A program made the position numbers and the translations under genes. The notes below the pieces were generated by a model. That model was given only the letters and a program-made list of their open reading frames with translations, ran no database searches and had not been told where the DNA came from. Of a stretch of DNA of 28,804 bases, positions 741 through 21,507 are shown in pieces. Numbering within the stretch: position 1 is the stretch's first letter; every line of letters starts with the position of its first letter. Source of the DNA: an uncultured bacterium (lineage in GTDB: Bacteria > Verrucomicrobiota > Verrucomicrobiia > Verrucomicrobiales > DEV007); the NCBI GenBank assembly GCA_963977015.1, contig CAXBMO010000042.1, positions 1 through 28,804 of the forward strand, given 5' to 3'.

Positions 741-1004
741 ATGAAATACCCCATCTACACAACAACTCTCCTTGCCCTCTTTGCTGGCGTTTCCTGGGCC
801 GTACCTCCAACCAAAAGCCACCACTCCATCGTCCGGGCAAAAAATGCCAAGGCCCACCAGGAGCAGATGCAACAAACGAAGCAGACCGCGAGTCAGCGCC
901 CCACAACCATCGCTCTGGACGTTGGTAAGGGTAAAGCTAAAGCGATTGTGAAAGGGAAGCGAAATCAATTCCAGGCCTATCATCATCGCAACAAAGGTCA
1001 CTAA
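741..1004 (+). CDS. Small secreted basic peptide, paralog 1 (xPPxKS...HHRNKGH family)
   Basis: Signal peptide ending VSWA; clear paralogs at 10150-10407 and 21244-21507. Confidence 0.9.
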   Translation: MKYPIYTTTLLALFAGVSWAVPPTKSHHSIVRAKNAKAHQEQMQQTKQTASQRPTTIALDVGKGKAKAIVKGKRNQFQAYHHRNKGH

Positions 1005-1039
1005 ATCTCTCTCTTCGCGGCCCAATCGATGGGCAAACG

Positions 1040-1080
1040 GGAGTCCTAGCGAATTCTACAGCAGAAGCGCTAGAGGCTCC
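1040..1080 (+). terminator. Imperfect stem-loop downstream of peptide 1
   Basis: GGAGTCCTAGCG...CGCTAGAGGCTCC inverted repeat; weak U-tract. Confidence 0.45.
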
Positions 1081-1155
1081 TGTAGTTCATGAAGATTGAT
1101 AATTTAGAATAGTTAAGGCTTGCAAATCGCCCAATTGCAGTTTCTCTTCCTCCCC

Positions 1156-1554
1156 ATGCGGGTGCCTACCGCCATCACAATCCTTTTTCTTTGGGTGAGT
1201 TGTTATCTCAACTGCACCACGGGACTGTTTGCGCAACTCAGTGAAGAAATTAGGGGCGGTGATTTTCGCGCAGAGTGTTCAACCTGCCCTCACGATCAAC
1301 CTGTCCCAGAAGAGCAAAAGAGGCCCTGCGGAGATTGCGACTCGATCGCAAAATTAGCTGAAACGGAGACTTTTTCTCCTAAGCTGATGGAGAGTCGCGA
1401 TACAGAAGGCGTCTTCCATGCGTCTTTGGCAGGCGACTCGATCAGGCAACTGGTTTTGCTGAATCAGCGTCCCAAATCCACGGAGGCGCTTTTTTCCTGT
1501 GGTGAGCCAGCTTGGGCTCACATTTCGCGGCCCATTCGCGGCCCGGCGGTGTAG
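1156..1554 (+). CDS. CzcI/DUF2946-like leader protein with two CxxC motifs and an arrest-like C-terminus
   Basis: Hydrophobic N-terminus, CSTC and CGDC motifs, ends AWAHISRPIRGPAV; lies directly upstream of the TolC-MFP-RND operon. ATG 1156 preferred over TTG 1120. Confidence 0.7.
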   Translation: MRVPTAITILFLWVSCYLNCTTGLFAQLSEEIRGGDFRAECSTCPHDQPVPEEQKRPCGDCDSIAKLAETETFSPKLMESRDTEGVFHASLAGDSIRQLVLLNQRPKSTEALFSCGEPAWAHISRPIRGPAV

Positions 1555-1687
1555 TTCTGCGCCGGAGAAGAATTTCCGGGGACCGCTCGTTCCCGCCCAT
1601 TTCTCAGGCGCACGGTTCTGGTCTTTTTTCGGCTTCCTCGTGCCCACGTGGTGCGCCCTTTGCCAGCGAATTGCATTTTTCTTTCCT

Positions 1688-2959
1688 ATGATCCTTCCGT
1701 CTTGTTACTCACTCACACCTCTATTCTTCATCAGCTTACTGGCTGCGAACCATCTCCTTCTCGCGCAAGAGAAACCTGCTCCGTTTACAATTGAGGAGTT
1801 GGTCACTCAAGCTTTGGAAAGCAATCCCGAGCTTCAATTTTACGAAGCTGAGATTGCATCCGCGAAGGCTGGCCGGCGGGAGGCTGGCAGACTTGGAAAT
1901 CCCGAACTCGACTTCGACTTCGGCCGGAAAAGGTCAACCGGCGCCGATTTTCGAAGCGAAGGCGTGGCTTATGCCGTGGCCTTGGCGCAGCCGCTGGAAT
2001 GGCCGGGCAGAATCGGTTTGCGCAAGGCAATTGCAGATGGCGAAATCGACTTGGCGGAGCTTGGCCTGAAGCGTTTCAAATACGCCTTGGCCGGTCAGGT
2101 GCGGCAGTTGGCTTTCCGCGTTTCAATCGCTCAGGAAAAGGCCGCCGTGGCTCGCGATGTGGCCGGTCGGTTTAACGCCGTGAAGGATGTTTTGCTCCAG
2201 CGCGAAGTGGGTGGAATCGCTCCCCACCTGGAAATCAAAGTCATCGACGCTGCCACGATGACGATGGAGAAGGAGTCGCTGGAGGCGGCGGTGGAGGTTC
2301 AGATGGCGCTTCTGGAGCTAAACCAATTGATGGGCAGGTCTGCGGTCTCCCCTCTGGTAGTTGCCCGCGCGAAAACCGATTTTCCCGACATGCCGGAAGT
2401 CGCCAGACTGATGGAACTGGCGGTCGAAAGGAATTACGAAATGCAGGTGCTGCGGGCGGAACTGGCGCAGCAAGGCTTCCGCGTTTCGCTGGCGAAAAAT
2501 GAACGTTATCCCACGATTAAGGTCGGCCCCTACGTCTCCCGCGAGGAGGCCGGTGAGGTGGAGAGCGAGGCCGGAATTGGTTTCTCGCTAGAGCTGCCCA
2601 TTTTTCGAAACGGCAAAGCCAAGGTGTCCCAGGCCCAAGCCCGAGAAGCCCAGGCCGAGGCAACGATTAATGCTGCCGCCCGGAGGTTGGAGCGCGAAGT
2701 GGCGTCCGCCGCGCTGGTTTATTTGAACTCGCGCAAGCAACTGCAAGGCTGGCCGGCCGAACGAATCGACGCGCTTCAAGATTCGGCGCAGTCGGCGGAC
2801 CGGCATTACCGGCTGGGTGCGGTTCCTGTAGCGACTTACATCGAGCTTCAGGAGAAATATCTAGAAGCTTTGGAGGCCGTCAACGACGTGAAAGCCGATG
2901 CTCTGGAAGCTTGGCTAACTATCGAGCAACTGACCGGCGCGACGCCTGAATTTGACTAA
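1688..2959 (+). CDS. TolC/CzcC-family outer membrane efflux protein
   Basis: Signal peptide from ATG 1688, ALESNPEL motif, two OEP helical repeats. Confidence 0.93.
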   Translation: MILPSCYSLTPLFFISLLAANHLLLAQEKPAPFTIEELVTQALESNPELQFYEAEIASAKAGRREAGRLGNPELDFDFGRKRSTGADFRSEGVAYAVALAQPLEWPGRIGLRKAIADGEIDLAELGLKRFKYALAGQVRQLAFRVSIAQEKAAVARDVAGRFNAVKDVLLQREVGGIAPHLEIKVIDAATMTMEKESLEAAVEVQMALLELNQLMGRSAVSPLVVARAKTDFPDMPEVARLMELAVERNYEMQVLRAELAQQGFRVSLAKNERYPTIKVGPYVSREEAGEVESEAGIGFSLELPIFRNGKAKVSQAQAREAQAEATINAAARRLEREVASAALVYLNSRKQLQGWPAERIDALQDSAQSADRHYRLGAVPVATYIELQEKYLEALEAVNDVKADALEAWLTIEQLTGATPEFD

Positions 2960-2988
2960 CCAACACATTCCACAACCCAAACCAAATC

Positions 2989-3717
2989 ATGAAAAAACAA
3001 CTGAGACATGGCTACCGCGTTATTGGCTTGGCCGTGAGCGCCGCCTTGGGCTTCGCCATCCCGGCAAACGCGAACGATGAACTGGAACGCCCCCCCGGCC
3101 CGGTGACGGGCGACAACCCGAACATTGGCATCAAGTATGACAAGAAGCAGGGCCTCTACGTGACCCCGTTTTCCGCAAAGTTGCTCGGCCTGGAAATGGC
3201 CGACGTAGATGAATCCGAGATCTTCTCCACGCTCACACTCCAGGCCCGGGTGTATGACAATCCCGGCGACGGCACAGCTCAGGCCAGCGCGTGGCTTCCC
3301 GAAGAAGAAGCGAAGCTGGTGCAATCCGGTCAGGCGGTCCTGCTCGATGGAGATCGGGCTGGAGAGATTACCGCAGTTTCGGAGAAGATGAACGGTCAGG
3401 CAGAGGTATTGCTGTCAATCGCGGATCCCGCAGGTGGGTTGAAAGTCGGGAAGTTTCTATCCGGAAATCTCGCGATCTCAAGTAACGGCCCGGTGACCGT
3501 GGTCCCGGAGAAGGCCATCATCCATTCCGCGGAGGGAGCGTTCGCCTACGTCGACAACGGCGGCTGGACGGTTCGCACACCGGTGGAAGTCGGTGCCATC
3601 GCTGGAGGTAAAGCCGAGATCATCGACGGGATTTACTTCGGGGATCGCGTCGTGACGCAGCCGGTCATGGCGCTCTGGATGACGGAACTGCAACTCCTGA
3701 AATCGGGCAAGGCCTGA
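2989..3717 (+). CDS. Reduced periplasmic adaptor (MFP, CzcB/CusB-like), 242 aa
   Basis: Signal peptide; C-terminal VVPEKAI...VEVG...EIIDGIYFGDRVV typical of MFPs; located between TolC and RND. Confidence 0.85.
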   Translation: MKKQLRHGYRVIGLAVSAALGFAIPANANDELERPPGPVTGDNPNIGIKYDKKQGLYVTPFSAKLLGLEMADVDESEIFSTLTLQARVYDNPGDGTAQASAWLPEEEAKLVQSGQAVLLDGDRAGEITAVSEKMNGQAEVLLSIADPAGGLKVGKFLSGNLAISSNGPVTVVPEKAIIHSAEGAFAYVDNGGWTVRTPVEVGAIAGGKAEIIDGIYFGDRVVTQPVMALWMTELQLLKSGKA

Positions 3718-3730
3718 AGCTGCGCCCACT

Positions 3731-3748
3731 GAGTGCCGGTCGGCACTC
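3731..3748 (+). other. Intra-operon hairpin between the MFP and RND genes
   Basis: GAGTGCCG-GT-CGGCACTC perfect inverted repeat. Confidence 0.55.
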
Positions 3749-3808
3749 TCGAAGCCAAACCCTCGAACTCGATTTGCAACCCCGACATCTCATGACACGC
3801 CGATTTTC

Positions 3809-6800
3809 ATGATTAACTGGATCGTCACCCAAGCAATGCGGCAGCGCGCCATGGTGGTGCTCGCCACGCTCATTCTCATCGGGACGGGCATCTGGTCTGC
3901 CCTGAACCTCTCCGTGGACGCCGTGCCGGACATCACCCATGTCCAGGTTCAGGTCAATACGGCAGTCCCCGCGCTCGCTCCCGAGGAGATCGAGAAACTC
4001 GTCACATTCCCGATCGAAACCGAGATGGCGGGTCTTCCGGGGATGACCGACCTCCGCTCGCTCTCGAAATACGGCCTCTCCCAGGTGACGATGGTTTTCG
4101 AGGACGGATCGGACATTTACCTGCTTCGCCAACTCGTCGCGGAGCGCCTCCAGACCGTGCAGGAGGAAATTCCCGAGGGCCTCACGCCCCAACTCGCCCC
4201 GATCGCCACCGGGCTCGGCGAGATTTTCTACTACTTCATCGACTACGCGGAGGACGCGGCCAACGCTCCCGAAGATCCGCTGGAGCGACTCATGGCGTTG
4301 AAGCTGATTCACGATCTGCAGGTCAAACCACTCCTGCGGGCCACTCCCGGTATCACCGAGATCAATGTGACCGGTGGTTACGAGAAACAAATTGTCATTC
4401 AGCCCTACCCGGAGCGACTCACCGCTGTCGGAATGACGCTCGAAGACGTCGCCGACAAGATCGCGATGAACACCGAGAACGTCGGAGGGGGGCTCATCGA
4501 ACTCGGCGGCGAGCAGGTCGTCATCCGGGGAGACAACCGTGTCGCCACGATCGAGGAAACCGCCAAACTCCCGCTGAAGTTCGGGGCCGGCGTCGATCCC
4601 TTGCTGGTCGAGGACATCGCCGAAATTCGCATCGGCCACAGCTTCCGCACGGGGGCCGCCACGGTGCGTGGCAAGGAAGCCGTCGTCGGCACGGCTGTCA
4701 TGCTGCTCGGCGAGAACAGCCGCACCGTCTCCGTCGCCGTCGCGGATCGGCTAGGCAAGATCCAGGAAAAACTGCCCGAAGGCGTCATCATCGAAGCCCT
4801 TTACAACCGGTCGGATCTGGTCGATGCGACCATTCACACGGTGGAGAAGAACCTCTTTGAGGGAGCCATTTTCGTTGTCGTTGTCCTGCTCCTCATGCTC
4901 GGAAATTTCCGCGCGGCGCTGATCGTTGCCTGTGCGATTCCGCTCTCGATGCTGTTCGCCTTCACCGGAATGGTCACCAACGAGATATCCGGAAATCTGA
5001 TGAGTCTCGGCGCGATCGACTTCGGCCTCATCATCGACGGAGCTGTCGTCATGGTGGAAAACATCGTCCGCCACCTCGCCGAGAAACAGAAAGCTCTCGG
5101 CCGCAAACTCAACGCGCAGGAACGCTTCGAGGAAGTGCTCGTCTCTGCCCGCGAGGTCGCCAACCCCATGTTCTTCGGCGTCCTTATCATCACGGTGGTC
5201 TATGTGCCGATCCTCGCTCTCACCGGGATCGAGGGGAAAATGTTCCGCCCGATGGCGCTCACCGTGATGTTCGCCCTCATCGGCGCGCTCATCCTCTCGC
5301 TCACCCTGATGCCGGTGCTCTGCTCCTATTTCCTGAAAGGCGAGATCAAAGAGAAAGACTCCCGGCTCGTCACCTTCTTCAAGTTTCTCTACGCACCGAT
5401 CCTGCAATTCGCGCTGCGCTTTCGCTGGATCGTCGCCCTGGCGATGTTCGGGTTGTTCGGCTTTTCGCTGTTCCTTTTCAGCCGGATGGGGGCCGAATTC
5501 GTCCCAGAACTCGACGAGGGCGATCTCACGATCCAGTTCATCCGCAGCATCAGCGCCGGACTCGACGCCTCGCTCGATCTCCAGCTCAAGTCCGAGAAAC
5601 TGCTGCTTGAGAAATTTCCCGAGGTCGAGGACGTCTTCGCCCGGATCGGCACCTCGGAAGTGGCGATGGACCCGATGGGGCCGAACCTCGCCGACACCTT
5701 CCTCATGCTGAAGCCGCGAAGCGAGTGGCGGAAGATCGACGGCCGCACCATCACCAAAGCGGAACTCGGTAGTCTCATGCGCGACGAACTCTCCCTGAAT
5801 GTTCCGGGACAAGGCTACCTCGTCACACAGCCCATTCAGATGCGATTCAATGAGATCATGGCCGGTGCCCGGGCCAATTTGCTCTGCAAAATTTTTGGCG
5901 AAGACTTCGATGAACTCGAACGCCTCGCCGGAGAAGCCCGTGCCTTGATCGTCGCGATCCCAGGAGCCAGCCAGGTCGAGTTTGACAACGTGGGGCGGAA
6001 CCCAACGCTGGAGATCACTCCGAACCGCGACGCAATGCGCAAATTCAACGTGCAGGCCGACGAAATCAACGCCGTCGTCCGTGCCGCCCTCGCCGGGGAG
6101 GAAACCGGCATGATGATCGACGGAAACCGCCGCTACGAGATCGTGGTGAGATTGCCCGAAAGAATCCGCACCGACATCAAAGCCATCAAGCGTCTTCCCC
6201 TCCGCACCGAAGACGAAGGGCTCATCACCCTCGGCCAGGTCGCCAACATCGAGATGGTGCAGCAGGTCGGGACCATCGCCCGCGAAGCCACCCAACGGCG
6301 CGTCTCGATCCTCATCAACAACGAAGGCCGCGACACCGAAAGCTTCGTCGAGGAAGCGCAGGCCGCTCTACGCGAACAGGTCGATTGGCCCGACGGCTAC
6401 TATTTCGAGTTCGGCGGCCAGTTCGAGAATCTGATCAAAGCCAAAAAGCGCCTCTCCGTCGTCGTTCCTGTCGCGATGGGACTCATCTTCGTGCTCATCT
6501 TCATGAGCTTCGGCAGTTTCCGGCAGGCGGCGCTGATCTTCACCTGCGTTCCGCTCGCCATCACCGGCGGCATCTTCGCAATCTACCTGCGCGGGATGCC
6601 CTTCACCATTTCCGCCGGTGTCGGTTTTATCGCGCTGAGCGGGATTGCCGTCCTCAACGGGATCATGCTCATCAGCTTCATCAACCAACTGCGCGAGGGC
6701 GGCATGGGCCTGCGCGACGCCGTCGTCCAGGGGTCACTGACCCGCCTCCGCCCCAAGCTCATGACCGCGTTGGTCGCCTCCTTTGGCTTCATCCCCATGG

Positions 6801-7003: not shown

Positions 7004-7036
7004 ATTTCCTTTAACCAAACCCAAAACAAATAAACG

Positions 7037-7492
7037 ATGAAAACCAAACCAAAAATCCAAACCCTCCTCGCCTGTCTCGCTTTCACTGTCGCCCTCCCGG
7101 CGATGGCCGATGAAGAGGCCAAAGAAGTCGAAGCCGGAGCCCGCGGCGGGCGTCTCCTCGCCACCGAAAGCCCCCGTCCCGAGTTCTTTGTCGAGAAAGA
7201 CCACACTGTTTCGGTGAAGTTCTACAACGAAGCCAAGGAAGTCGTGGCGCCGACCACGCAGCAAGTCACGGTCATCGCAACCGGAGCCAAGAAAGCCAAA
7301 CTGGCCCTGACCAAGAAAGAGGACGCCCTCGTCTCCACCGAGCCGCTGCCTGAAGGCGATGGCTACAACCTGGTGGTCCAGGTTCGCCCCGATGCCGATT
7401 CGCGCCCGGAGAACTTTCGGTTCACGTTTTTGAATCACATCTGCGGCGGCACCTGCGGCAATCCCGAATATGCCTGCACTTGCGACGAGTGA
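7037..7492 (+). CDS. Secreted protein with C-terminal CxxxC-x3-EYACTC motif (paralog A)
   Basis: Signal peptide AMA|DE, GARGGR motif, ends CGGTCGNPEYACTCDE; paralogs at 27319 and 28085. Confidence 0.88.
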   Translation: MKTKPKIQTLLACLAFTVALPAMADEEAKEVEAGARGGRLLATESPRPEFFVEKDHTVSVKFYNEAKEVVAPTTQQVTVIATGAKKAKLALTKKEDALVSTEPLPEGDGYNLVVQVRPDADSRPENFRFTFLNHICGGTCGNPEYACTCDE

Positions 7493-7513
7493 TTGGGAAC
7501 CCGGCTCGTCCCG

Positions 7514-8125
7514 ATGAGCAGTTGCGATTGTCATTCAGAGCAAACCGACACTCTTCAGCGGTCGGTCTTGGCGACTCTGTTAGCGATCAATGGCCTCATG
7601 TTCGCCGCCGAGTTTGGCCTGGGAATTCTGGCCGACTCCACCGGCCTGATCGCCGATTCGCTCGACATGCTGGCCGACGCCACCGTATACGGCCTCTCGC
7701 TGTATGCGGTGGGCCGGGCAGCGAGTGTCAAGACGAATGCCGCGCGCTTGAGTGGCTATTTTCAGATTGCTTTGGCGATCGGCGTATTTCTCGACATCGT
7801 TCGCCGGTTCATCTTTGGCAGCGAACCAGTTTCGACGCTGATGTTTGGGGTGGGGCTGGTTGCCTTGGCGGCAAACGTGGCTTGCCTCTTGCTGCTGGCC
7901 AAACATCGCAAAGGCGAGGTGCACATCCGGGCGAGCTGGATCTTTTCCAAAAACGACGTCATCGCGAATCTGGGGGTGATGGGCGCTGGAGTGTTGGTTC
8001 ATCTGACTGGTCAAAAATGGCCCGATCTTGCAATCGGTCTTCTAATCGTGATCGTCGTCTTTCGTGGTGGGTTGGAGATCACCAAGGATGCCAAGAACGA
8101 GAGCTGTCTTGACTATGAAGACTGA
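7514..8125 (+). CDS. Cation diffusion facilitator (Cation_efflux) transporter, membrane domain only
   Basis: MSSCDCH N-terminus, STGLIADSLDMLAD, SKNDVIAN, WPDL; 5-6 hydrophobic segments. Confidence 0.9.
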   Translation: MSSCDCHSEQTDTLQRSVLATLLAINGLMFAAEFGLGILADSTGLIADSLDMLADATVYGLSLYAVGRAASVKTNAARLSGYFQIALAIGVFLDIVRRFIFGSEPVSTLMFGVGLVALAANVACLLLLAKHRKGEVHIRASWIFSKNDVIANLGVMGAGVLVHLTGQKWPDLAIGLLIVIVVFRGGLEITKDAKNESCLDYED

Positions 8126-8322: not shown

Positions 8323-8580
8323 TCAGTGGTGGCCGTGCCCGTGATGGCCGTGGTGCCCACCGTAGCCGAAATGACCACCGTGACCATGATGGCCATGACC
8401 ATAGCTATGGTACCGCGACGGATAATGCCGATTCGAGTAGTAGCCATGACCGTGACCACTGTAATATCCATAGTGTCCGCCGTACCCATAGGGATATAAA
8501 TAACAACTCGTCAGACCAAGAAGACATGTTGCCGCCAATAGAATAGCCGCGATTTTCGTTGGAATTTCTTTCCGCTTCAT
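8323..8580 (-). CDS. Gly/Tyr/His-rich small lipoprotein
   Basis: ATG 8580; lipobox LTSC followed by YLYPYGYGGHYGYYSGHGHG...GHHGHHGHGHH. Confidence 0.8.
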   Translation of the reverse strand: MKRKEIPTKIAAILLAATCLLGLTSCYLYPYGYGGHYGYYSGHGHGYYSNRHYPSRYHSYGHGHHGHGGHFGYGGHHGHHGHGHH

Positions 8581-8719
8581 CGCAACCGTCAATTAACATC
8601 TAACCATACGCCGGTGCAAGAGATTTGCGGGAATTCAGCCATGCACCCATTCTCTACCATCAGGCAAAGGGCGGCGTCGGAAGGTTGATTCCCAGGGAGA
8701 AACTTTTCCGTGGGAAATT

Positions 8720-8748: not shown

Positions 8749-8760
8749 AGAGCAGCGCAC

Positions 8761-9744: not shown

Positions 9745-10082
9745 TTCCGACATCTCAAGGCGAATGAAGTCTTTGGCCCGCTGAACCAATATCCACCCTC
9801 ATGTTTGTCGTCGGCTTCGTCGCATTAGGAGCAAACTTCGCCTGCCCCATGCTCCCCGCCAAGCATCGCAAAGGCGAAGTCCTCATCCGTGCCAGCTGGA
9901 TTTTTTCCAAAAACGATGTCATTGCCCATATCGGAAACATCGCGGCGGCGGTTTTGGTCCATTTGACCGGATTACGATGGCCTGACCTCGCGATTGGTTT
10001 GATCATCGTCACCGTCGTCTTTCGCGGCGGGGTCGAGATCGTTGGGGAAGCCAGAAAGGCTGCCAAACTGTCGGAGGCGTAA
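9745..10082 (+). pseudogene. Truncated, degenerate copy of the CDF gene (3' half)
   Basis: KHRKGEVLIRASWIFSKNDVIA...WPDLAIGLII nearly matches 7514-8125; similarity continues out of frame to about 9745; the 5' half is missing. Confidence 0.85.
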
Positions 10083-10116
10083 GCCGAAGCGCGAGGGCAG
10101 GTTCGCGCTCCGGCTT
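10081..10116 (-). terminator. Hairpin between convergent genes
   Basis: AAGCCGGAGCGCGA/TCGCGCTTCGGCTT 14-bp stem with one G-U pair on the minus strand, downstream of peptide 2. Confidence 0.6.
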
Positions 10117-10149
10117 CCGATTGGTTGTCAGGTTGGGAGGGTAGGGAAA

Positions 10150-10407
10150 TTAGTAGCCCTTGCGCTGCAGATGCCTTCGGATGATTGAGGTTTGTCTCTT
10201 TTCTTTGCCGATGTTGAGGCCGACTGTCGATTGGCGTTGCGTGGACTGCTGCACGGTTTGCCCTGATTCCCTTGCCTCTTTCGCTTTTTCCTGGTGCTCC
10301 TTACGAACACGCTGGAACGATTGGTAGTTGGACTTGGTTGGAGGTACAGCCCAGGAAACGCCGACTGCCAAGACCAAAAAGGATATTAAGTAGATGGGTT
10401 TTTTCAT
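10150..10407 (-). CDS. Small secreted basic peptide, paralog 2
   Basis: MKKPIY...VSWA|VPPTKS...TVGLNI...HLQRKGY. Confidence 0.88.
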   Translation of the reverse strand: MKKPIYLISFLVLAVGVSWAVPPTKSNYQSFQRVRKEHQEKAKEARESGQTVQQSTQRQSTVGLNIGKEKRQTSIIRRHLQRKGY

Positions 10408-10431: not shown

Positions 10432-10459
10432 TTAAACCCGCCCAAAGCATCACCCCTCA
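10432..10459 (-). promoter_or_regulatory. ECF-type promoter P3 (A-type)
   Basis: TGAGGGGT-N13-GGTTTAA upstream of ATG 10407. Confidence 0.75.
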
Positions 10460-10525
10460 CGTTCGTTGAAATTTCGGTCTTTTTGGGGCCCGGAAGAACG
10501 GCAACCAAGCCAAATTCAGCTTTTC

Positions 10526-10554
10526 TGAGGGCTTGCCGACCATTTGGTGTTTTA
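10526..10554 (+). promoter_or_regulatory. ECF-type promoter P4 (A-type variant; autoregulation of cascade 1)
   Basis: TGAGGGCT-N14-TGTTTTA, 13 nt upstream of ATG 10568. Confidence 0.65.
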
Positions 10555-10567
10555 TCTTACGACAATC

Positions 10568-10921
10568 ATGAATCCTCCGAATCCAGATTCCGATAACGAT
10601 CCCAAGCTCCGCGAAACGCTGCAATCCTGGGATGTCGAAATGACCGCTCCGCCCGGTTTTCGCCGGGAAGTCTGGCAGCGGATCGCAGTTCGTAGCGAAC
10701 CCAAGGCCTTTTGGGTGCGTCACTTTCAGTCTTTTGGCGAGTTCTTCGCCCACCCCGTGGTCGCCGGAGGGGTGGCACTCTTGGTGATCGGCGTTGCCGT
10801 CGCCAGTGCGCGAGTCCATTCAGGGATCGCTGCCCAACAAAGAATGCACGAGTTGAGCGAACAATACGTCGTCAGCATCGACCCGCTTTTGAGAAGCCAT
10901 TTCCATCCTGAGAAGCCATGA
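10568..10921 (+). CDS. Putative single-TM anti-sigma factor (CnrY position), cascade 1
   Basis: LRETLQSW...FRREVWQRI N-domain and one TM helix; ATGA overlap with the next gene. Confidence 0.8.
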   Translation: MNPPNPDSDNDPKLRETLQSWDVEMTAPPGFRREVWQRIAVRSEPKAFWVRHFQSFGEFFAHPVVAGGVALLVIGVAVASARVHSGIAAQQRMHELSEQYVVSIDPLLRSHFHPEKP

Positions 10922-11433
10922 AAAAGGGACTCTTGATCTTTGTCGCTATTCTTCTGACTGGCGCAGTCGCCTATTGCGCAGTTTTTCGCTGGTCGTATGC
11001 CCATACCGCGATGATGAGCCAGTCGCAAGACGCCGAATTGGAGTGGCTGCGCCACGAATTCTCTCTTTCGGCCGATCAGTTTGAAACGGTGCGCGAACTT
11101 CACGCGGCTCACGATTTGGAATGCCTCAGACACTGCGAAGCCCTTGCGCTCAGCAATGATCGGTTGTTTCGCCTGATGCGGGAGAGCACGGAGATCACGC
11201 CAGAAATCGAAACGGCCCTCCAAGCGGCAACGGAACTGCGCGAAGAATGCCGACGTTCGACTTTGCGACACATCTACGAGGTTAGCCAACACATGAACAC
11301 CGAATCTGCGCAGCGTTACCGTGAGACGATGACGGCGCGCTTGGTGGATTCCGGACTGCACCACCGCACCGCTATTTCGCCCACTTCCCTGGATTGGAAG
11401 GGCTCACACGGTCATCAGCCAGCGAACCACTAG
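10918..11433 (+). CDS. Periplasmic heavy-metal sensor, CnrX/Spy-CpxP-like, Cys-containing variant
   Basis: N-terminal TM, WLRHEFSLSADQF, ECLRHC, EECRRSTLRHIYEV. Confidence 0.82.
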   Translation: MKKGLLIFVAILLTGAVAYCAVFRWSYAHTAMMSQSQDAELEWLRHEFSLSADQFETVRELHAAHDLECLRHCEALALSNDRLFRLMRESTEITPEIETALQAATELREECRRSTLRHIYEVSQHMNTESAQRYRETMTARLVDSGLHHRTAISPTSLDWKGSHGHQPANH

Positions 11434-12039
11434 ATGAAAAGCGACAAGGAGGGATCCGAGCGTGACGCCGCAGACAAGGCTGCGATGACTCAGCTTCGCG
11501 AGGGCAACGATTTGGCGCTCAACGCGATTATGGAGCATTGGGAGCAGCCGTTGCTTTCGTTTCTCTATCGCTACACCACCAATTGGAGCGTGGCGGTGGA
11601 TTTGGCGCAGGAAACCTTCGTTAAAGTGTTTCAGAGCCGAATGCGCTATCGGCCCAAGGGGCAGTTTTCGACCTGGCTCTTTTCAATCGCGATGAACTTG
11701 GCCCGAAATGAGGCGCGTTGGCGCAAACGAAATCCGCAAAGCGCGATGTCGGGCGCGGCTGAAGACGAACGGCAGTTGGCTGCGTTGGATTCCGCGGAAA
11801 TTCGGCCCGATGATGCCGCGGCGGGAAACGATCGTGCGCGAATGGTGCGCGAGGCGATCCGCGAGTTGCCGGGCGATTTGCGCACGGTGGTCTTGCTTTC
11901 CGAGTATGAAGGGATGACGCAGCGGGAGATAGGTGACGTGTTAGGTTGCACACCGAAAGCCGTGGAAACACGACTTTACCGTGCGCGGAAGCTTTTGCGG
12001 GACAAGCTGAAGGATGCCGTTGGCGACGTTATGGCGTAG
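11434..12039 (+). CDS. ECF RNA polymerase sigma factor (CnrH-like), cascade 1
   Basis: Region 2 DLAQETF...FSTWLFSIAMN; region 4 EIGDVLGCTPKAVETRLYRARK. Confidence 0.95.
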   Translation: MKSDKEGSERDAADKAAMTQLREGNDLALNAIMEHWEQPLLSFLYRYTTNWSVAVDLAQETFVKVFQSRMRYRPKGQFSTWLFSIAMNLARNEARWRKRNPQSAMSGAAEDERQLAALDSAEIRPDDAAAGNDRARMVREAIRELPGDLRTVVLLSEYEGMTQREIGDVLGCTPKAVETRLYRARKLLRDKLKDAVGDVMA

Positions 12040-13619: not shown

Positions 13620-13724
13620 TCTAAAAGTTAGCATGCTACAATCTATCGATGGCAAAGCTTGCGCTACAGAAAGCGTTCTGACCTGGGGGGAGATCAAGAA
13701 TCTATCCCAATAATATTCATCACC

Positions 13725-14817
13725 ATGAGTGTCGACAAATCTTCGATGGGCTTCTTTGAGCGCCATCTTACCGTCTGGGTGGCGCTTTGTATTATCGCGG
13801 GCATTGCCCTCGGCAAACTTGCGCCTAATCTCGCTCAAACGCTCGACGGGATGGCAATCGACGTGAATGGCGCTCTGGTGGTTTCCATTCCCATCGCCAT
13901 TTGCCTCTTTTTCATGATGTACCCGATCATGGTGAAAATCGACTTTGGCGAAGTGGTCCAGGCAAGCCGTAATCCCAAGCCGGTTCTCCTCACCCTGATT
14001 GTCAATTGGGCAATCAAACCCTTCACCATGCTGGGGATCGCTACGTTGTTTCTCAGCTACTTTTTCAAAGACCTCCTTCCAGGCACTGAAGTTCAAAGGT
14101 GGCGCAGAAGTTGAACTCTACCGCTCTTATATATCCGGTGCGATTCTGCTCGGGATTGCTCCCTGCACCGCCATGGTGCTGGTATGGGGATACCTCGCAC
14201 GTGGAAACCAAGGACTCACTTTGGTAATGGTAGCCATCAATTCCCTCACGATGTTGCTGCTCTACGGCATCCTCGGGGGCTGGCTACTGGGTGTCAATCG
14301 AATGCCTGTTCCTTGGCAATCCCTATTGCTTTCGGTCACCATCTACGTCGCGCTGCCGTTGGTAGCGGGTTACCTATCGCGCCGCTGGATCATGAAGGCC
14401 AAAGGCCCACAGTGGTTCGAGCAAAAATTTCTCCACCTCCTGACGCCGGTGTCGATTACGGCACTCCTAGCCACCTTAGTGCTACTTTTCAGCTTTAAGG
14501 GGGAAACCATCCTTGCGAATCCGCTCACCATTCTCTGGATCGCCATCCCGCTTGCCGTACAAACGCTGCTGATTTTTACGCTGACGTATATCGCAGCGAA
14601 GTTTCTAAAGTTCAGCTACGAAAACGCTGCTCCTTCGGCCATGATTGGTACGTCCAACCATTTCGAGGTAGCCATCGCTACGGCGGTAATGCTCTTCGGC
14701 CTATCTTCAGGGGCTGCGCTCGTCACTGTCGTCGGCGTGCTTATCGAGGTGCCGCTGATGCTCTTTCTAGTTCGTGTCTGTCAGAAGGCGCGGGGCTGGT
14801 TTGGTCAGCAAGTGTAG
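13725..14817 (+). pseudogene. acr3: ACR3-family arsenite efflux transporter, frameshifted near 14094
   Basis: [23 protein letters not shown] and NWAIKPFTM in one frame; [20 protein letters not shown] and GVLIEVPLM in the next frame. Confidence 0.88.
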
Positions 14818-15166: not shown

Positions 15167-16030
15167 ATGACACCTCCCCTCCGTTTGTCCATCGTGGGTT
15201 TGTTCACTGCCCTTTCCGTTCCCTTCGCATTTGCCCAAAACCACGACGGTCACGACCACTCCAGCCATAATCATGTTCATGGTTCTGCCGCTGCCAAGTC
15301 ACCACAAATCAATCAGAGCGACCAAATTACTCTGAATCAGGAAACTCGCGACCGACTGGGAATCCGGCTAGGCATGGTTGACCTGCGAGAGTTTGGCAAC
15401 GGGACTGACGCGGTTATCGCGATTCCGAAAAGCAGCGTATTTCAAGAAAACGGCAAAACCTACGTTCTGGCTCAATCTCAGAATGACAAATCCCAATTCG
15501 AACGTTGGGAAGTGAAATTGGGAGCTAGCGATTCTGAATTTGTGGAGGCCGTGAGCGGCGTTTTCCCTGGCGACAACATTGTGGCAAACGGCACGGAACT
15601 CCTCACTCAGTCCGGCTCCGAAACCGCCGAATCTTCACCTCCGGGCCTTTCTTTTTCCCAACCGAACCAATTCAACGAAAACCGCACGAACCAGTTCAGT
15701 CAGCGTGTAGAGCCCCGTTACGACTCCAGATATGCACCCGACGACAATCAGCACGGTTCGTTTTCCTGCCCATTTGATCAGCACGGCGACACACATTCCG
15801 CTCCCCGCGAGAGGTATTCGCGGGACCATCACGACTACACGCATTCCCGTTCCTACGACTTATACCATCGCGACGATGATTATTCCCATTCTCGCTCCCG
15901 CAGAGATTCATCCGATTACCTGCACGGACACACTTCGCGTTACGATGATTACCATTCCGAAGGTCACGATCGCTACTATGGGCACGATCGCTCATTCGAC
16001 CGCTCTTGCCCGCTGGAGAGGCGTTGGTAA
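15167..16030 (+). CDS. Secreted protein: His-rich N-terminus, MFP-like C-terminal beta domain, long His/Asp/Arg/Tyr/Ser-rich tail
   Basis: AFA|QNHDGHDHSSHNHVH; IAIPKSSVF...VKLGASD...EAVSGVFPGDNIV; tail DHHDYTHSRSYD...CPLERRW. Confidence 0.82.
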   Translation: MTPPLRLSIVGLFTALSVPFAFAQNHDGHDHSSHNHVHGSAAAKSPQINQSDQITLNQETRDRLGIRLGMVDLREFGNGTDAVIAIPKSSVFQENGKTYVLAQSQNDKSQFERWEVKLGASDSEFVEAVSGVFPGDNIVANGTELLTQSGSETAESSPPGLSFSQPNQFNENRTNQFSQRVEPRYDSRYAPDDNQHGSFSCPFDQHGDTHSAPRERYSRDHHDYTHSRSYDLYHRDDDYSHSRSRRDSSDYLHGHTSRYDDYHSEGHDRYYGHDRSFDRSCPLERRW

Positions 16031-16040
16031 TTTCCGCCGC

Positions 16041-16619
16041 TCAGCTCTCTTTCGTCATTTTCAGGGCCAAAAAGCGTTTTGCCCGGCGCACCCGGGATTC
16101 CACCGCCCTCACCGTGCATCCCAGCTTTTTTGCGGTTTCAGCTTGGGAGTGACCTTCCAGCGCGAACAAGATTAATGCGTCTCTTAGCGGTGGCGGTAGG
16201 GTAGAGATAGCTTGGTGCAATCGGGCAATTTCTTCAGACAGCGACGCTTCTTCATCGGGGGCGGCTTCAAGCGCGAGTCTTCCGTCATTTTCAAGGTTGG
16301 ATTCCTGAAGGACGGCGGCAAAGTCTCCCGGACGCCGTTTCCGTTTTCGGAGGTGGTCGCGGCACAAATTGGCAGCGATGGCATAGAGCCAGGTTTGGAA
16401 TTTAGCGTCCGATCTTACTCGATAGCGGTGACGTTTGGAATACGCTCTGTAAAACGTTTGGGAAAGGACATCTGATGCCTCATGGGCATCCTGAAGGTGC
16501 CAGTAAATAAAGCGGAACAGACCTTCGTTGTGAAGCTCAATCAGCTCTTCAAGGGCAGCTTCATCCCCCGTCTTGAATCGCTCGACCAGCGACGAATCGT
16601 CATCCTCCTTCCCGGACAT
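16041..16619 (-). CDS. ECF RNA polymerase sigma factor (CnrH-like), cascade 2
   Basis: DVLSQTF...FQTWLYAIAANLCRD; SQAETAKKLGCTVRAVESRVRRA. Confidence 0.95.
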   Translation of the reverse strand: MSGKEDDDSSLVERFKTGDEAALEELIELHNEGLFRFIYWHLQDAHEASDVLSQTFYRAYSKRHRYRVRSDAKFQTWLYAIAANLCRDHLRKRKRRPGDFAAVLQESNLENDGRLALEAAPDEEASLSEEIARLHQAISTLPPPLRDALILFALEGHSQAETAKKLGCTVRAVESRVRRAKRFLALKMTKES

Positions 16620-16633
16620 AGAGAAGTTTTGGG

Positions 16634-17098
16634 TTACTTGCTCGGACCAGTTGACCGGTTGCGCAGCGCTTCCGTTACCAGCTTTAGCAGCTTTTCAAAT
16701 TGCTCTGGAGTGAGGGCGGCTTCCATCTCCAAAAGGTGCTCGATGGTTGCCTTCTGGAGTTCCCCTTGGATTTCATGGATCTCGGTGATGATGGCGTCTA
16801 CTTGGGACGAGTAGGCGCGGTCGCGTTCCAGTGCGTCGGCCAATTCGGAGACCGCCCTGGCGTTAGCGGCTTTCAGTTCGGCTTCGCGGTCAAGAAAGTG
16901 TTGTTCGATCGTTTCCAGCGAGCTTACTTGCTTCGGGCTCAGCCCCAAATCCCGCTGGAGAACTTCGTGAGCATGGGCGTGAAGTTGGGGATGGTGATCG
17001 GCTGGCCGGAAAAACCGGAGAGCCAACGCACAGCCCAGCGCAGCGGCGGTCAAAACGCACAAAAAGAGAAGCGCCCCGTTTTTCCAGGTCAAACTCAT
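16634..17098 (-). CDS. CnrX/NccX-like periplasmic heavy-metal sensor, cascade 2
   Basis: ATG 17098 (ATGA overlap); TM, HAHAHEVL...IEQHF...ELQKATIEHLLEM, matching the CnrX-type HxxEM site. Confidence 0.88.
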   Translation of the reverse strand: MSLTWKNGALLFLCVLTAAALGCALALRFFRPADHHPQLHAHAHEVLQRDLGLSPKQVSSLETIEQHFLDREAELKAANARAVSELADALERDRAYSSQVDAIITEIHEIQGELQKATIEHLLEMEAALTPEQFEKLLKLVTEALRNRSTGPSK

Positions 17099-17421
17099 CG
17101 GCCCAAGATTATTTGATACGGCATGCCGGAGGCTTCTGCGTCGAAAACGGCCAGCCTCAATGAATCGCGCAGGGGATCGGTCGAGTCTTTGTTTTGTGAG
17201 AATGCTGAGATCCCTCCCCAAACTAAGCCGAACACCAGAGCCACGCAGGCCAAGGCAGCACTTAACTGCGAGAAACTCAGCCAGGCAAAGCAGGGTTCGG
17301 GAGTCGCTTCGGAATCGCGCAATTTGCGCACCGCCCGAAGCACTTGATGAGGAGGTGGGGCAACGGGGAGCGACGTGACACTTAGGTTCTCCAACAATTC
17401 GTCGATGTGTTGTGGCGTCAT
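17095..17421 (-). CDS. Putative single-TM anti-sigma factor (CnrY position), cascade 2
   Basis: MTPQHIDELLENL...VLRAVR, one TM helix, LAVFD; downstream of promoter P5. Confidence 0.8.
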   Translation of the reverse strand: MTPQHIDELLENLSVTSLPVAPPPHQVLRAVRKLRDSEATPEPCFAWLSFSQLSAALACVALVFGLVWGGISAFSQNKDSTDPLRDSLRLAVFDAEASGMPYQIILGR

Positions 17422-17440
17422 GATGTGTGTGTTTAGGGGG

Positions 17441-17469
17441 GTAAACGCCGAGTGGATATGAATCCCACA
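17441..17469 (-). promoter_or_regulatory. ECF-type promoter P5 (T-type variant; autoregulation of cascade 2)
   Basis: TGTGGGAT-N14-CGTTTAC upstream of ATG 17421. Confidence 0.75.
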
Positions 17470-17515
17470 AATTTTCGGACTTTTTTCGCAAGTGCCGATT
17501 CCTGGGAAAATAATC

Positions 17516-17544
17516 TGTGGGGTGGGTGCAAGACCGGCGTTTAA
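17516..17544 (+). promoter_or_regulatory. ECF-type promoter P6 (T-type)
   Basis: TGTGGGGT-N14-CGTTTAA upstream of tolC 17636. Confidence 0.85.
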
Positions 17545-17635
17545 GACGGTGTTCCGTCGCCCCTCCAACCACCAAAAGCATTTGCGTCATGTTAGGATGC
17601 GCCTATTTTGTTAATTTTTTCCTGATATTTAAGTC

Positions 17636-18982
17636 ATGCCCTCATTTCCGAATATCCACCTCCTCATCGCCCATCTGAGTTTGCTCTTTGGAGCGAGCTT
17701 CGTCACCAGTTGCGCCATCCCGGCCCATTCCGAAACGGAGGCTGCTGAGTTACCCAGTGTCGTCGCGAACTCTGGCCCCACAAATGATTCGACCAGCTTC
17801 ACCCCGGCACGCGCCATCGATCACGCCCTGGCTAACAACCCGGAATTACGGGCGGCGCGCTATCAAATCGCAGTGGCGCAAGCAAACTTAAAGTGGGCGG
17901 GTCGGCTGAATGATCCCGAATTCGAACTGGGAGCAAATACCGACCAATGGGGCCTGAACGACAACGAAAGTCTGGTCGAAGTCGCCCTCTCCCAGAAATT
18001 TCCGCTGACCGACCGCCTCAAGCGGGAGCGCAATCTTTCCGAAGTGGACCTGGCCCTGGCCAAGGCCGAAGTGCATGTGGCCGAATGGAACTTGGCTGCC
18101 GAAGTCCGCCAGGCGACCGTCGATGCATTGGCGCTTCAGCGGCAAATCCGGCTTCGACAAGAGTTGAAAGGGGTGCTGGCGGAATTGGCCGGGCAGATCG
18201 AAGAAGCGTTTCAAGTCGCGGAGGCTTCGCCACTGGACTTGACCGAGGCCAAGCTGGAGGTGGAGACGCAAACGCGGACGATCCGCGAATTGGAGGCGGA
18301 ACTGGTTCGCGTGATGGGCGGTTTGCGAGGCTTGCTGGGACTGCCGCCCGAATCCGCTGTAGCGGTCTCCGGAAACCTGGATGAACCATCTGGCTACCGC
18401 ATTGCGCCGGACGCGGAAGTGCTGGCGCAGCGTCCTGATCTGCAACTGAGCTTGCTGCAACAGCGCCGCGCCGAGGCGTCGATTGCACTGGCCCGTTCGC
18501 GGCGCTGGCAAGATGTAGCGGTGCGCTTGTTTTTGGAACGCGATGCGGCAGTGGACGAACCAGAGGGTCTGGAGCGAAACACCTTTGTTGGCGTCGGCTT
18601 TTCCTTGCCGCTTCCCCTGCGCACGCCGGAAGCGCGCCTGACCGATGCGCCCCGCCAGGAACTGGCAGCGGCGGAAGCTTCCACGGACGCGCTGGCCGCG
18701 ATGATTCGCAACGACATTACCACGGCGAACGAGGAACTGGCGCAGCGTCGCCAAGCCTGGGCTCAAGTGACAGCGGAGACTCTTCCGCTCGCTCGCCAAA
18801 ATGTTCGGGAAGTGCGCGAATCCTATCGTCTGGGAAAGGAAGGATTCGTCCGGCTGCAACGCGCTCAGGAGCGCGCGCTGGACATCGAAGAGAGCGCGAT
18901 CGAAGCGCTCCATCAGTATCATCTGGCACTCGCCCGATTGCGCAAAGCGGCGGCCGCAGATGTTTCGGAGCGATCGGATTGA
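17636..18982 (+). CDS. TolC/CzcC-family outer membrane efflux lipoprotein
   Basis: Lipobox VTSC, ALANNPELRAAR, RPDL motif, OEP repeats. Confidence 0.92.
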   Translation: MPSFPNIHLLIAHLSLLFGASFVTSCAIPAHSETEAAELPSVVANSGPTNDSTSFTPARAIDHALANNPELRAARYQIAVAQANLKWAGRLNDPEFELGANTDQWGLNDNESLVEVALSQKFPLTDRLKRERNLSEVDLALAKAEVHVAEWNLAAEVRQATVDALALQRQIRLRQELKGVLAELAGQIEEAFQVAEASPLDLTEAKLEVETQTRTIRELEAELVRVMGGLRGLLGLPPESAVAVSGNLDEPSGYRIAPDAEVLAQRPDLQLSLLQQRRAEASIALARSRRWQDVAVRLFLERDAAVDEPEGLERNTFVGVGFSLPLPLRTPEARLTDAPRQELAAAEASTDALAAMIRNDITTANEELAQRRQAWAQVTAETLPLARQNVREVRESYRLGKEGFVRLQRAQERALDIEESAIEALHQYHLALARLRKAAAADVSERSD

Positions 18983-19039
18983 TAGCGAAGGCCAGTCGAT
19001 GGAGACGCCTTTCCTGGACTTAAAATGAGATCATGAATA

Positions 19040-21100
19040 ATGGAAGACTCCCACGAAAACCACGCTCACGATCAAGGCACTGAGGATTCCGAGGCTCCGC
19101 ATGCCCACGGCGGCATCTTCGGGGAACGAACCGAACTGATATTCTCCCTCATCTGCGGCGCGCTTCTCCTTGTGGGATTCGTGCTCTCGAAAACTATCTC
19201 GTCTGGTAATACCCTCATCCCTTGGGTTTTCTATCTCACGGCCTATTTCTTCGGGGCCTGGTTTACCGCGAAAGAAGCCCTTGAAAAAATCCTGAAACGC
19301 CAGTTCGAGATCGATTTTCTCATGCTCGTCGCCGCGATTGGTGCGGCAACGCTGGGCGAATGGGCGGAGGGTGCCCTACTTCTCTTTCTGTTCAGCCTCG
19401 GTCATGCTCTGGAACACTATGCGATGGGACGCGCCCGCCGGGAAATCGAGGCTCTCGGCGAGCTTGCCCCGAAAACGGCCCTCGTCCGGCAGGGTGATTC
19501 GCTCGAAGAGGTGTCGGTCGAGGATTTGGAAGTAGGCGATATCGTCGTCATCAAACCCGACGAACGCGTTCCCGCCGACGGATTTGTCGTTAAGGGCGAG
19601 AGTAGCGTGAATCAGGCCCCGATCACGGGCGAGAGCGTTCCTGTCGATAAACGACCCGTCGATGATCCGATTGCGACCACCGTAGATTCCGGGAAGATCG
19701 CTCCCGAGCATCGGCTCTTCGCCGGATCGATCAATCAGAGCGGAGCGCTCGAAATGCAGGTGACAAAACTATCCGGCGAATCCACTCTGGCCCGTGTGGT
19801 CCAGATGGTTAGCGAGGCCGAGACGCAACAATCACCGACCCAACAGTTCACCGACCGGATCGAGCGCGTCTTCGTTCCTTCCGTCCTGATTCTCGTCGTG
19901 CTCTTGCTCTTCGCCTGGGCTCTCGTTGACGAAACTTTTGCTCAATCATTCTATCGCGCCATGGCGGTCCTTGTCGCCGCGAGTCCTTGCGCCCTCGCCA
20001 TCGCGACACCCAGCGCCGTCCTGAGTGGAGTGGCACGGGCAGCTCGTGGAGGAGTCCTCGTGAAGGGTGGCGGCCCGCTCGAAAATCTAGGGCAACTTGG
20101 AGCCATCGCCTTCGACAAAACCGGCACCTTGACTGAGGGAAAACCTCGTCTCACCGACGTCGTGCCTGCCGGTGAAGCCTCCGAGGAGGATCTGCTCGAT
20201 ACAGCCATCGCCGTCGAGCAACTTAGCGATCACCCCCTCGCAGCCGCCGTCGTCCGCGATGGCACCGAACGGCTCGGTCGCTCCGCCGGAACCGAAGCCT
20301 CCAATATTCAGAGCATCACCGGTCGTGGAGTTAGCGCGGAAATCGCAGGGGAGATTGTCCACATCGGCAAAGACGACCTTTTTTCAGAAGTCGAAGGTCC
20401 TACTCTTCCTGATGCCATTCGACAAACCGTCGAGAAGCTCGAAACCGAGGGACGCACTACGATGATTGTGCGCCGGGGAAATCGCTATCTCGGCGTGCTC
20501 GGTCTGATGGACACCCCACGCAAGTCCGCTCGGGGCATGATCGAACGGCTTCGTGGACTCGGCATCCAACGCATGATCATGATCTCCGGCGACAACCAGA
20601 AAGTCGCCACCGCGATCGCCAAAGAAGTCGGACTCGACGAAGCGTGGGGCGATCTCATGCCCGAGGATAAAGTATCCTCGATCAAAAAACTGCGTAAGCA
20701 GCAGGAAGTCGCCATGGTCGGCGATGGAGTCAATGACGCCCCCGCCATGGCCAACGCCACCGTCGGCATCGCCATGGGCGCGGCGGGATCTGACGTCGCG
20801 CTGGAGACCGCTGATGTCGCTCTCATGGCCGACGATCTCGACCATCTGCCCTTCGCCGTCGGGCTCAGCCGTAAGACCAGCCGCATCATCAAACAGAACG
20901 TCTGGTTCAGTCTCGGGATGGTCGCGATCCTCATTCCCTCCACCATGTTCGGTTTGAAAATGGGGGTCGCCGTGTTGTTCCACGAAGGTTCCACCCTTCT
21001 CGTCGTGTTCAATGCCCTGCGACTCCTCGCCTACCGGGAAAAGCCGGTTTCCGTCCGTGGTCAGTTGGCAGAACTGCCTCAATCATCGATGCCGATATAG
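19040..21100 (+). CDS. Heavy-metal P1B-type ATPase, P1B-4 subgroup (Co/Zn/Cd, CzcP-like)
   Basis: TGES, SPC, DKTGT, SDHP, GDGVNDAP and HEGST motifs; short His-rich N-terminus. Confidence 0.95.
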   Translation: MEDSHENHAHDQGTEDSEAPHAHGGIFGERTELIFSLICGALLLVGFVLSKTISSGNTLIPWVFYLTAYFFGAWFTAKEALEKILKRQFEIDFLMLVAAIGAATLGEWAEGALLLFLFSLGHALEHYAMGRARREIEALGELAPKTALVRQGDSLEEVSVEDLEVGDIVVIKPDERVPADGFVVKGESSVNQAPITGESVPVDKRPVDDPIATTVDSGKIAPEHRLFAGSINQSGALEMQVTKLSGESTLARVVQMVSEAETQQSPTQQFTDRIERVFVPSVLILVVLLLFAWALVDETFAQSFYRAMAVLVAASPCALAIATPSAVLSGVARAARGGVLVKGGGPLENLGQLGAIAFDKTGTLTEGKPRLTDVVPAGEASEEDLLDTAIAVEQLSDHPLAAAVVRDGTERLGRSAGTEASNIQSITGRGVSAEIAGEIVHIGKDDLFSEVEGPTLPDAIRQTVEKLETEGRTTMIVRRGNRYLGVLGLMDTPRKSARGMIERLRGLGIQRMIMISGDNQKVATAIAKEVGLDEAWGDLMPEDKVSSIKKLRKQQEVAMVGDGVNDAPAMANATVGIAMGAAGSDVALETADVALMADDLDHLPFAVGLSRKTSRIIKQNVWFSLGMVAILIPSTMFGLKMGVAVLFHEGSTLLVVFNALRLLAYREKPVSVRGQLAELPQSSMPI

Positions 21101-21243
21101 GGGGAACGGAAGCCCTGGTGCGAACTCCACGACCGCCGAATTGCGCTTTAATCCAACGCCATGGTATCGTCGAAAAAATAAAGGGAGAGCCAAAGCGGTG
21201 CGCTTCGACTCTCCGGTTGGTTAGGGCAGGTTGGGCAGGGATG

Positions 21244-21507
21244 TTAGTGTCCCTTGTTGCGGTGATGATAAGCCTGGAACTGGCTACTTCGGCTCTCGGT
21301 GGTTTTGGTCTTAGCGTTGCCTTTAACGTCCAACGCGATCGTCTTCGGACGCTGGGCACCGGATTGGTTCTCTTGTTGTTTCTGCTCCTGGCGCTCCTTC
21401 TTGTCTTTGTTCATGAACATCGAGTAGTGGCTCTTCGAGGGCGGAAAGGACCACGCCGCAGCGGCAGAGATTCCAAGAAGGGTTGCGATATAGATTGGGT
21501 ATTTCAT
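21244..21507 (-). CDS. Small secreted basic peptide, paralog 3
   Basis: MKYPIY...AWS|FPPSKSH...QRPKTIALDV...QFQAYHHRNKGH. Confidence 0.9.
   Translation of the reverse strand: MKYPIYIATLLGISAAAAWSFPPSKSHYSMFMNKDKKERQEQKQQENQSGAQRPKTIALDVKGNAKTKTTESRSSQFQAYHHRNKGH

Follow-up and report, generated by a model that had tools for sequence, protein, structure and literature searches.

Small secreted peptides of a Verrucomicrobiota metal locus and their possible pairing with a neighbouring aspartic protease

What is the role of a small secreted peptide that recurs three times in a single stretch of metal-related genes? The window analysed here, 28,804 nucleotides of DNA from an uncultured bacterium of the Verrucomicrobiota (Verrucomicrobiales, DEV007), is the entire contig C42 of a 6.9 Mb genome (labelled G000) and carries three such genes. 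The initial annotation described a family of secreted peptides, each with its own extracytoplasmic function (ECF) promoter, and proposed a periplasmic metal-binding, chaperone or signalling function. The explanation favoured below is that the peptides are dedicated, stress-induced, largely disordered substrates or decoys of a neighbouring aspartic protease; binding and cleavage are suggested by gene context, and the explanation is offered tentatively, at slightly less than an even chance. The peptide genes and their flanking elements are the following.

741..1004, plus strand: peptide copy 1 (87 residues; predicted signal peptide 1-20; core R53-P-T-T-I-A-L-D-V-G)
10150..10407, minus strand: peptide copy 2 (85 residues; divergent from cascade 1)
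21244..21507, minus strand: peptide copy 3 (87 residues)
686..713, plus strand: ECF promoter-like motif of copy 1 (TGAGGG ... GGCGTTTA; matrix score 21.4, third row genome-wide)
10433..10459, minus strand: ECF promoter-like motif of copy 2 (variant -10 GGGTTTA; outside the 62 matrix matches above the cut-off)
21534..21562, minus strand: ECF promoter-like motif of copy 3 (matrix score 17.9)
1020..1081, plus strand: 3' hairpins after copy 1 (z -3.0)
10081..10117, minus strand: 3' hairpin after copy 2 (z -5.0)
21184..21214, minus strand: terminator-like hairpin with a U-rich tail after copy 3 (z -5.4)

The three open reading frames (ORFs) translate as initially annotated and are homologous to one another (pairwise tblastn within the genome, E 1e-27 to 3e-9), with 22 alignment columns invariant across the copies. 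A hidden Markov model (HMM) of the three sequences, a check proposed with that annotation, separates the family cleanly from unrelated ORFs, the best of which reaches only E 0.43 among the 95,795 six-frame ORFs of the genome; two close paralogues and one distant one are found in the host genome besides the window copies. In codon comparisons, the nonsynonymous (dN) and synonymous (dS) substitution values are 0.12 and 1.37 for copy 2 and its paralogue on contig C14, and 0.24 and 1.53 for copy 1 and its relative in genome G125. In each of the seven pairs with more than 50% identity dN is smaller than dS, the weakest case being 0.29 against 0.80. The peptide genes are thus real and under purifying selection, as first supposed, with a dN/dS of roughly 0.1-0.2 for the two pairs named first. 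With a promoter motif upstream and a hairpin 3' of the stop codon, each copy looks monocistronic. Signal peptides were assessed by eye and with a crude hydrophobicity filter rather than with SignalP.

The family also remains an undescribed one, since the window copies match no family in Pfam, NCBIfam or the ESM Atlas; the relatives (25, 21 and 23 sequences) yield only single stray sub-threshold matches in Pfam and NCBIfam. A profile search over 1.84 billion representatives returned 14 matches. The peptide was matched in 9 of the 134 genomes of the host family, and removal of two false matches leaves 7, including G124, a genome 59% complete in which only the distant paralogue is present. Several candidates were rejected: G271 and G325, where the likeness is confined to the signal peptide; G118, a shadow frame; and G130, where the match lies inside a long protein.

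The tightest association of the peptides is with an aspartic protease, and not with the efflux pumps. Beside copy 1, a divergent aspartic protease gene, 592-52 on the minus strand, had been overlooked.

52..592, minus strand: two-domain aspartic protease of the secreted type, its N-terminal part (with the first D-T-G motif; divergent from copy 1; interrupted by an insertion sequence)
1..55, no strand assigned: end of a multicopy insertion sequence (CTAG junction; identical to the ends of contigs C29 and C3)

According to the flank annotation of relatives, a PF13650 aspartyl protease directly adjoins the peptide gene on contig C4 of the host genome and in genomes G125, G127, G115 and G119. In G109, peptide and protease lie at two contig ends with compatible frames and no overlap, from which we infer adjacency there. 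A protease-anchored scan of species genomes confirmed 122 relatives, of which the best 80 loci were kept; 74 of these are close homologues, nearly all from Verrucomicrobiota. From 77 near-full-length rows, seven were left out (L047, L050 and L122 as duplicates or near-duplicates, L115, L134 and L145 as truncated, L119 as mis-started) and L002 was added, giving 71 proteases. A small secreted-type ORF lies within about 0.3-0.5 kb of 57 of the 71; among size-matched six-frame ORFs of their own genome the figure is 59 of 1371 (an imperfect control, with shadow frames included), and among distant protease loci it is none of 26.

These small neighbours sort into four types: A, which is that of the window, B, C and a loose group D. 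A close protease is present in 10 of the 134 host-family genomes, and in six of the seven genomes with true type-A peptides, the seventh being the 59% complete one. Mapped on a quick protease tree, peptide type changes 12 times against a shuffled mean of 40.6, a pattern that kinship alone could yield.

The protease itself is a single chain of about 256 residues with two D-[TS]-G lobes, no extra domain and no PDZ match. It carries PF13650 with its D-[TS]-G motifs, and PF13650/PF13975 domains are found; the catalytic residues D30 and D164 are invariant in all 71 proteases, and signal-peptide-like N-termini are visible in the alignment. The predicted model is a confident one and has a bilobed pepsin-like fold (predicted local distance difference test, pLDDT, 92.5; predicted template modelling score, pTM, 0.89). 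Its best structural matches are plasmepsins, renin and 9IY9, a putative endopeptidase of Bacteroides fragilis that, among solved structures, matches best across both lobes (E 1.7e-10; TM 0.68). The enzyme is predicted to be a periplasmic two-domain aspartic protease. In the window, the profile built from relatives matched at 44-601 on the minus strand, the gene start being at 592, and the gene is broken at CTAG before the second motif, with the C-terminal part at the end of contig C31, whose tail matches the ends of contigs C25 and C5. A multicopy insertion sequence, joined at CTAG, splits the gene and explains the contig break; an intact protease is present on contig C4 of the host genome.

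On the peptide side, one short strand, R-x-x-T-[IV]-[AG]-[LV], is kept, and the remainder evolves fast. The best-conserved mature positions among 25 members are P23 (92%), K25 (96%), R53 (76%), T56 (92%), L59 (96%), R83 (72%) and K85 (72%). Net charge averages +9 in the mature peptides, with 21% K+R and 10% Q, and the ESM Atlas model reaches a pLDDT of 0.43; model and composition indicate that the peptide is likely to be largely disordered. The retropepsin-like protease APRc prefers V/I at P3, L at P1, D at P1', V/I at P2' and G at P3', according to the available text of PMC4140852, and the peptide segment T-I-A-L|D/N-V-G fits these preferences.

Type C has a different composition and a lower charge, with repeats of S-P-[KR] and [IV]-A-P-L-K at its end; a type-C search of 301 genomes of the phylum, a sample without a positive control, gave no match. 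At L210-L212 (contig C25 of G625), several secreted-type proteins share G-I-[AT]-A-S-P-[KR] repeats and the same terminal [IV]-A-P-L-K, and one of them encloses a Cys-rich domain; repeats and tail together suggest a shared processing or sorting tag. At L034:5570-8000 (contig C18 of G127), three peptide paralogues are clustered on the same strand, each with 3' hairpin-like sequence, and metal genes are absent nearby.

The expression signals of peptide and protease differ. The motif TGAGGG-N-G(C/G)GTT(T/A)A occurs at 686 on the plus strand and at 10459 and 21562 on the minus strand, about 30 bases 5' of the peptide starts, and the claim of an own ECF-type promoter for each copy is supported by a CnrH-like motif before all three. 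Seven motif sites are found in the window, plus the variant before cascade 1. A scoring matrix built from 24 sites found in other genomes gives the C4 peptide copy 20.8; the greater part of its 62 genome-wide matches above the cut-off is probably noise. Among the relatives, the motif stands upstream of 35 of 73 peptide genes, against about 3 expected. By type, the counts are 8 of 18 for A, 7 of 21 for B, 17 of 23 for C and 3 of 11 for D (expected 0.4, 0.9, 1.4 and 0.4), two of the matches looking misplaced. The protease genes show no such enrichment (8 of 71, with 12.7 expected). The window motif resembles cnrYp, for which the available text of PMC13492112 gives the elements -35 CCGAGG and -10 CCGTATA, and, once reverse-complemented, it is identical to the ECF291 motif printed there. 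ECF281, ECF290 and ECF291 are described as metal-linked sigma groups in the accessible part of PMC7826278. The same motif is found at 21704, before a stand-alone membrane HAMP protein (21739-22329) from which a kinase domain is absent.

A possible course of events can be outlined from these elements. Metal or envelope stress would free a CnrH-like sigma factor, and the freed factor would drive abundant synthesis of peptide from its monocistronic units, the protease having no such promoter of its own. Both partners would be exported, and the conserved strand of the exported peptide could then be laid in the protease cleft and cut, most plausibly after Leu if the preferences reported for APRc (PMC4140852, available text) apply. 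As a decoy or adaptor, the peptide may fill the protease and adjust its activity, and it would be removed once stress ends; the extra copies in metal islands would raise its dose.

Several observations weigh against this explanation. Evidence for contact between peptide and protease is gene context throughout, the locus set was gathered by a protease search, and related loci are not independent. The window's own protease is in a broken state owing to the insertion sequence, and no protease adjoins 11 of the 18 genomic type-A copies, two of which are window copies 2 and 3. The count that favours the explanation, the strand in 55 of 57 peptides of types A, B and D, was obtained with a pattern derived from these same sequences. 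Profile comparison of A with B aligns only 18 columns, the strand, at a probability of 7.5%, and detects no homology of type C to A or B; the link between A and B is thus limited to the strand, C is unlinked, and the types may be analogues whose common descent is unproven. Protease and peptide are both basic (mean isoelectric point 9.0), and their charges are uncorrelated (rho 0.01). Prosegment-like charge complementarity was considered and rejected on this ground, the both-basic pair being unlike that of pepsin and its prosegment. Finally, APRc is a distant and moderately specific enzyme.

If gene context is read differently, the peptides could be a periplasmic metal buffer or metallochaperone that holds Cu, Ni, Co or Zn by its His-containing ends, the protease being merely co-inherited. 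The genomic distribution speaks on both sides. Eight of the 18 genomic type-A copies lie in clear metal loci, one is uncertain (contig C4 of the host genome), and nine have no metal genes in the flanks read; for each of the first eight, the promoter motif or an evident variant of it is present, and eight of the nine copies without nearby metal genes also lack the motif. As regards the proposed metal linkage, the peptides occur often in cnrYXH-like metal loci, and half of the copies are unlinked, an outcome that the initial annotation had itself named as counting against its proposal. Composition is similarly divided. The mature parts of window copies 1 and 3 contain 6 and 4 His, respectively, one type-A member has a Cys/Met-rich insert, and some type-C peptides have Cys-rich tails. 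Among the 25 members, no conserved His/Met/Cys ligand set was found: His conservation peaks at 60%, the mature peptides carry 0-6 His each (one member has none), and a single Cys occurs in all 25 sequences, which together with the strong positive charge makes metal binding a weaker candidate for what the family does. On the other side, small proteins of a Cys-rich, TRASH-like or DUF3347-like kind take the same promoter position in other genera, and metal buffering stays a contender through them. Such a role leaves the adjacency at 57 of 71 proteases unexplained and is considered unlikely.

One further ORF had been noted for its related start.

22411..22746, plus strand: His/Tyr/Gly-rich secreted-type ORF (same promoter motif at 22344; similar N-terminus)

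The relationship extends to the promoter, the signal peptide and the first residues; only 31 columns align and the core strand is absent, and the ORF was rejected as a full family member. Together with 8323-8592 (minus strand) and 15167-16030 (plus strand), it belongs to a set of His/Tyr/Gly-rich ORFs or tails without a Pfam match, and these three are better metal-binding candidates than the peptides. Small, secreted-type, very Cys-rich metallothionein-like ORFs were seen at L164:821-1090, L168-L170 and L182, ahead of the anti-sigma gene and with the same ECF motif. Among the remaining genes of the window, an SBF-family transporter, which we take to be Acr3-like, is split over two frames at 13659-14817, and 9801-10082 is a truncated second copy of the cation diffusion facilitator transporter at 7493-8125. 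Three related secreted-type proteins follow resistance-nodulation-division (RND) genes at 7037-7492, 27319-27858 and 27929-28708; each has the motif G-x-x-G-G-R-[LV] as well as a segment C-x-x-C...Y-A-C-x-C at the C-terminus, and Pfam gave no match for the first two and only a sub-threshold one for the third.

The strongly basic, poorly ordered nature of the mature peptides also fits a polycationic envelope-stress protein of the Asr kind, a chaperone or a lipopolysaccharide-binding protein that would act independently of the protease, the latter only maturing or clearing it. At least two regulatory regimes are consistent with such a role. The palindrome CG(T/C)GTAA-N4-TTACACG precedes three paralogues in G125 (C84:15119, C146:9059 and C179:3302) and occurs nowhere else in five genomes, although a control pattern matched G125 at a similar count; it is possibly an operator or a 5' hairpin. 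PcoE, SilE, CopK and Asr are likewise small, secreted, stress-induced and poorly structured, as the peptides here are predicted to be. In contrast to PcoE, SilE and CopK, the peptides have neither a Pfam match nor a conserved His/Met ligand set, and the PcoE cluster in the ESM Atlas, at rank 23 with a score of 0.80, is at chance level for the peptide. The conservation confined to the seven-residue strand and the ends, together with the different composition and lower charge of type C, does not suit an independent polycation, and this role is judged decidedly unlikely.

The remaining alternatives depend on the regulatory genes from which copy 2 diverges.

10525..10553, plus strand: ECF promoter-like motif of the cascade-1 operon (variant; matrix score 20.4)
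10544..10921, plus strand: putative anti-sigma factor of cascade 1 (predicted single-pass; C-terminal Y-x-x-S-I-D-P; role assigned from position and topology; no Pfam match)
10918..11433, plus strand: CnrX-like sensor of cascade 1, cysteine type (PF13801; invariant H62, C69, C73 and C111)
11434..12039, plus strand: ECF sigma factor of cascade 1
16041..17469, minus strand: cascade 2 (promoter motif, anti-sigma-like gene, CnrX homologue and ECF sigma factor)

In both cascades the anti-sigma gene, its identity suggested by position, forms one operon with a PF13801 sensor and an ECF sigma factor. This is the order of CnrYXH in Cupriavidus metallidurans (ECF291), beside CzcA-type RND pumps. The cascade-2 sensor matches CnrX (E 2e-14) and keeps four of its five ligands, given as H42, H46, E63, H119 and M123 in the available text of PMC6851896, with Gln in place of H46. 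The peptide-linked cascade-1 sensor is a cysteine variant without this ligand set, the Met and one His position being missing. Sensors of this cysteine type (C-x3-C, a third Cys and a His) are widespread in Verrucomicrobiota (L075-L138, L158-L187).

In 25 of 74 loci, a span of 3 kb brings together protease, peptide, anti-sigma gene and CnrX-like sensor; the models were built partly from these loci, and the peptide is often first in the sigma operon. Such an arrangement would be expected if the peptide, like MucE, turned on the protease, which would then cut the anti-sigma factor of the CnrY kind within a positive feedback loop; MucE is described in the available text of PMC3819740 as a small protein of the envelope that depends on a sigma factor and switches on a protease. 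Within the host family, the sensor cassette is present in 50 of 134 genomes and only six of these have a close protease, while 4 of the 10 close-protease genomes have no cassette match. Since 44 of the 50 genomes with the cassette have no close protease, the cascade does not depend on the enzyme for its activation. Moreover, release of CnrH is described as conformational in the accessible part of PMC6851896, and the two-lobed protease has no PDZ match, so that activation of this kind appears quite improbable.

A direct contact with the sensor was weighed as well, in which the peptide would mimic the anti-sigma tail, bind the CnrX-like sensor and reset or amplify signalling. The C-terminus of CnrY docks in CnrX (PMC6851896, available text), the A-P-[LV]-K-like ends of types B and C resemble by eye the anti-sigma tail S-I-D-P-[LY], and copy 2 diverges from the anti-sigma gene. 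The type A of the window does not have that tail, most family cassettes are without such a peptide, and peptide-protease pairs occur without a cassette; tail mimicry is regarded as highly improbable.

How far the locus departs from known systems can be judged from its components. It shares with CnrYXH the gene order, the cascade-2 sensor and a promoter motif like cnrYp, and adds a peptide and a protease, neither of which is described for cnr in the available texts. The MucE-AlgW-MucA-AlgU system of Pseudomonas aeruginosa resembles it in combining a small envelope protein, an ECF promoter and a periplasmic protease partner; in the present locus the first two are predicted from signal peptide and promoter motif, and the third is a candidate. 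AlgW, according to the accessible literature, belongs to the HtrA serine proteases and recognises the C-terminus by way of its PDZ domain, whereas the enzyme here is aspartic with no PDZ match; the peptide ends in a basic C-terminus and carries its conserved element internally, and no MucE-type C-terminal ligand for a PDZ-containing HtrA protease is found in the peptides. With the bacterial retropepsin-like proteases APRc, RloA and PerP, the enzyme has PF13650/PF13975 domains in common. RloA proteins are secreted and serve stress tolerance, as stated in the available text of PMC11957051. APRc is a homodimer (PMC4140852, available text), unlike the single chain here. For APRc, RloA, PerP and 9IY9, the accessible sources describe no peptide partner, and the present locus offers a candidate one. 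A literature search on the combination of peptide and aspartic protease, or on 9IY9, found nothing, most subscription papers lying outside it. By the tests run, neither the peptides as a family nor their pair with an aspartic protease of a single chain belongs to CnrYXH, MucE-AlgW or RloA.

A broader proposal, which must be called rather doubtful, is that Verrucomicrobiota possess a periplasmic circuit of peptide and aspartic protease wired to CnrYXH-type sensing. The strand would then tag fast-evolving peptides, some with metal-binding passengers or repeats, for processing by a dedicated single-chain enzyme of the pepsin type, a step that would gate or reset the sigma cascade.

Few natural substrates or regulators of bacterial retropepsin-like proteases are known. 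Gene context here supplies a candidate partner, together with a seven-residue candidate recognition site, for a protease family that extends across the phylum. The pairing with the sensor cassette bears on whether proteolysis helps to release or reset metal-responsive sigma factors, a process now described as conformational.

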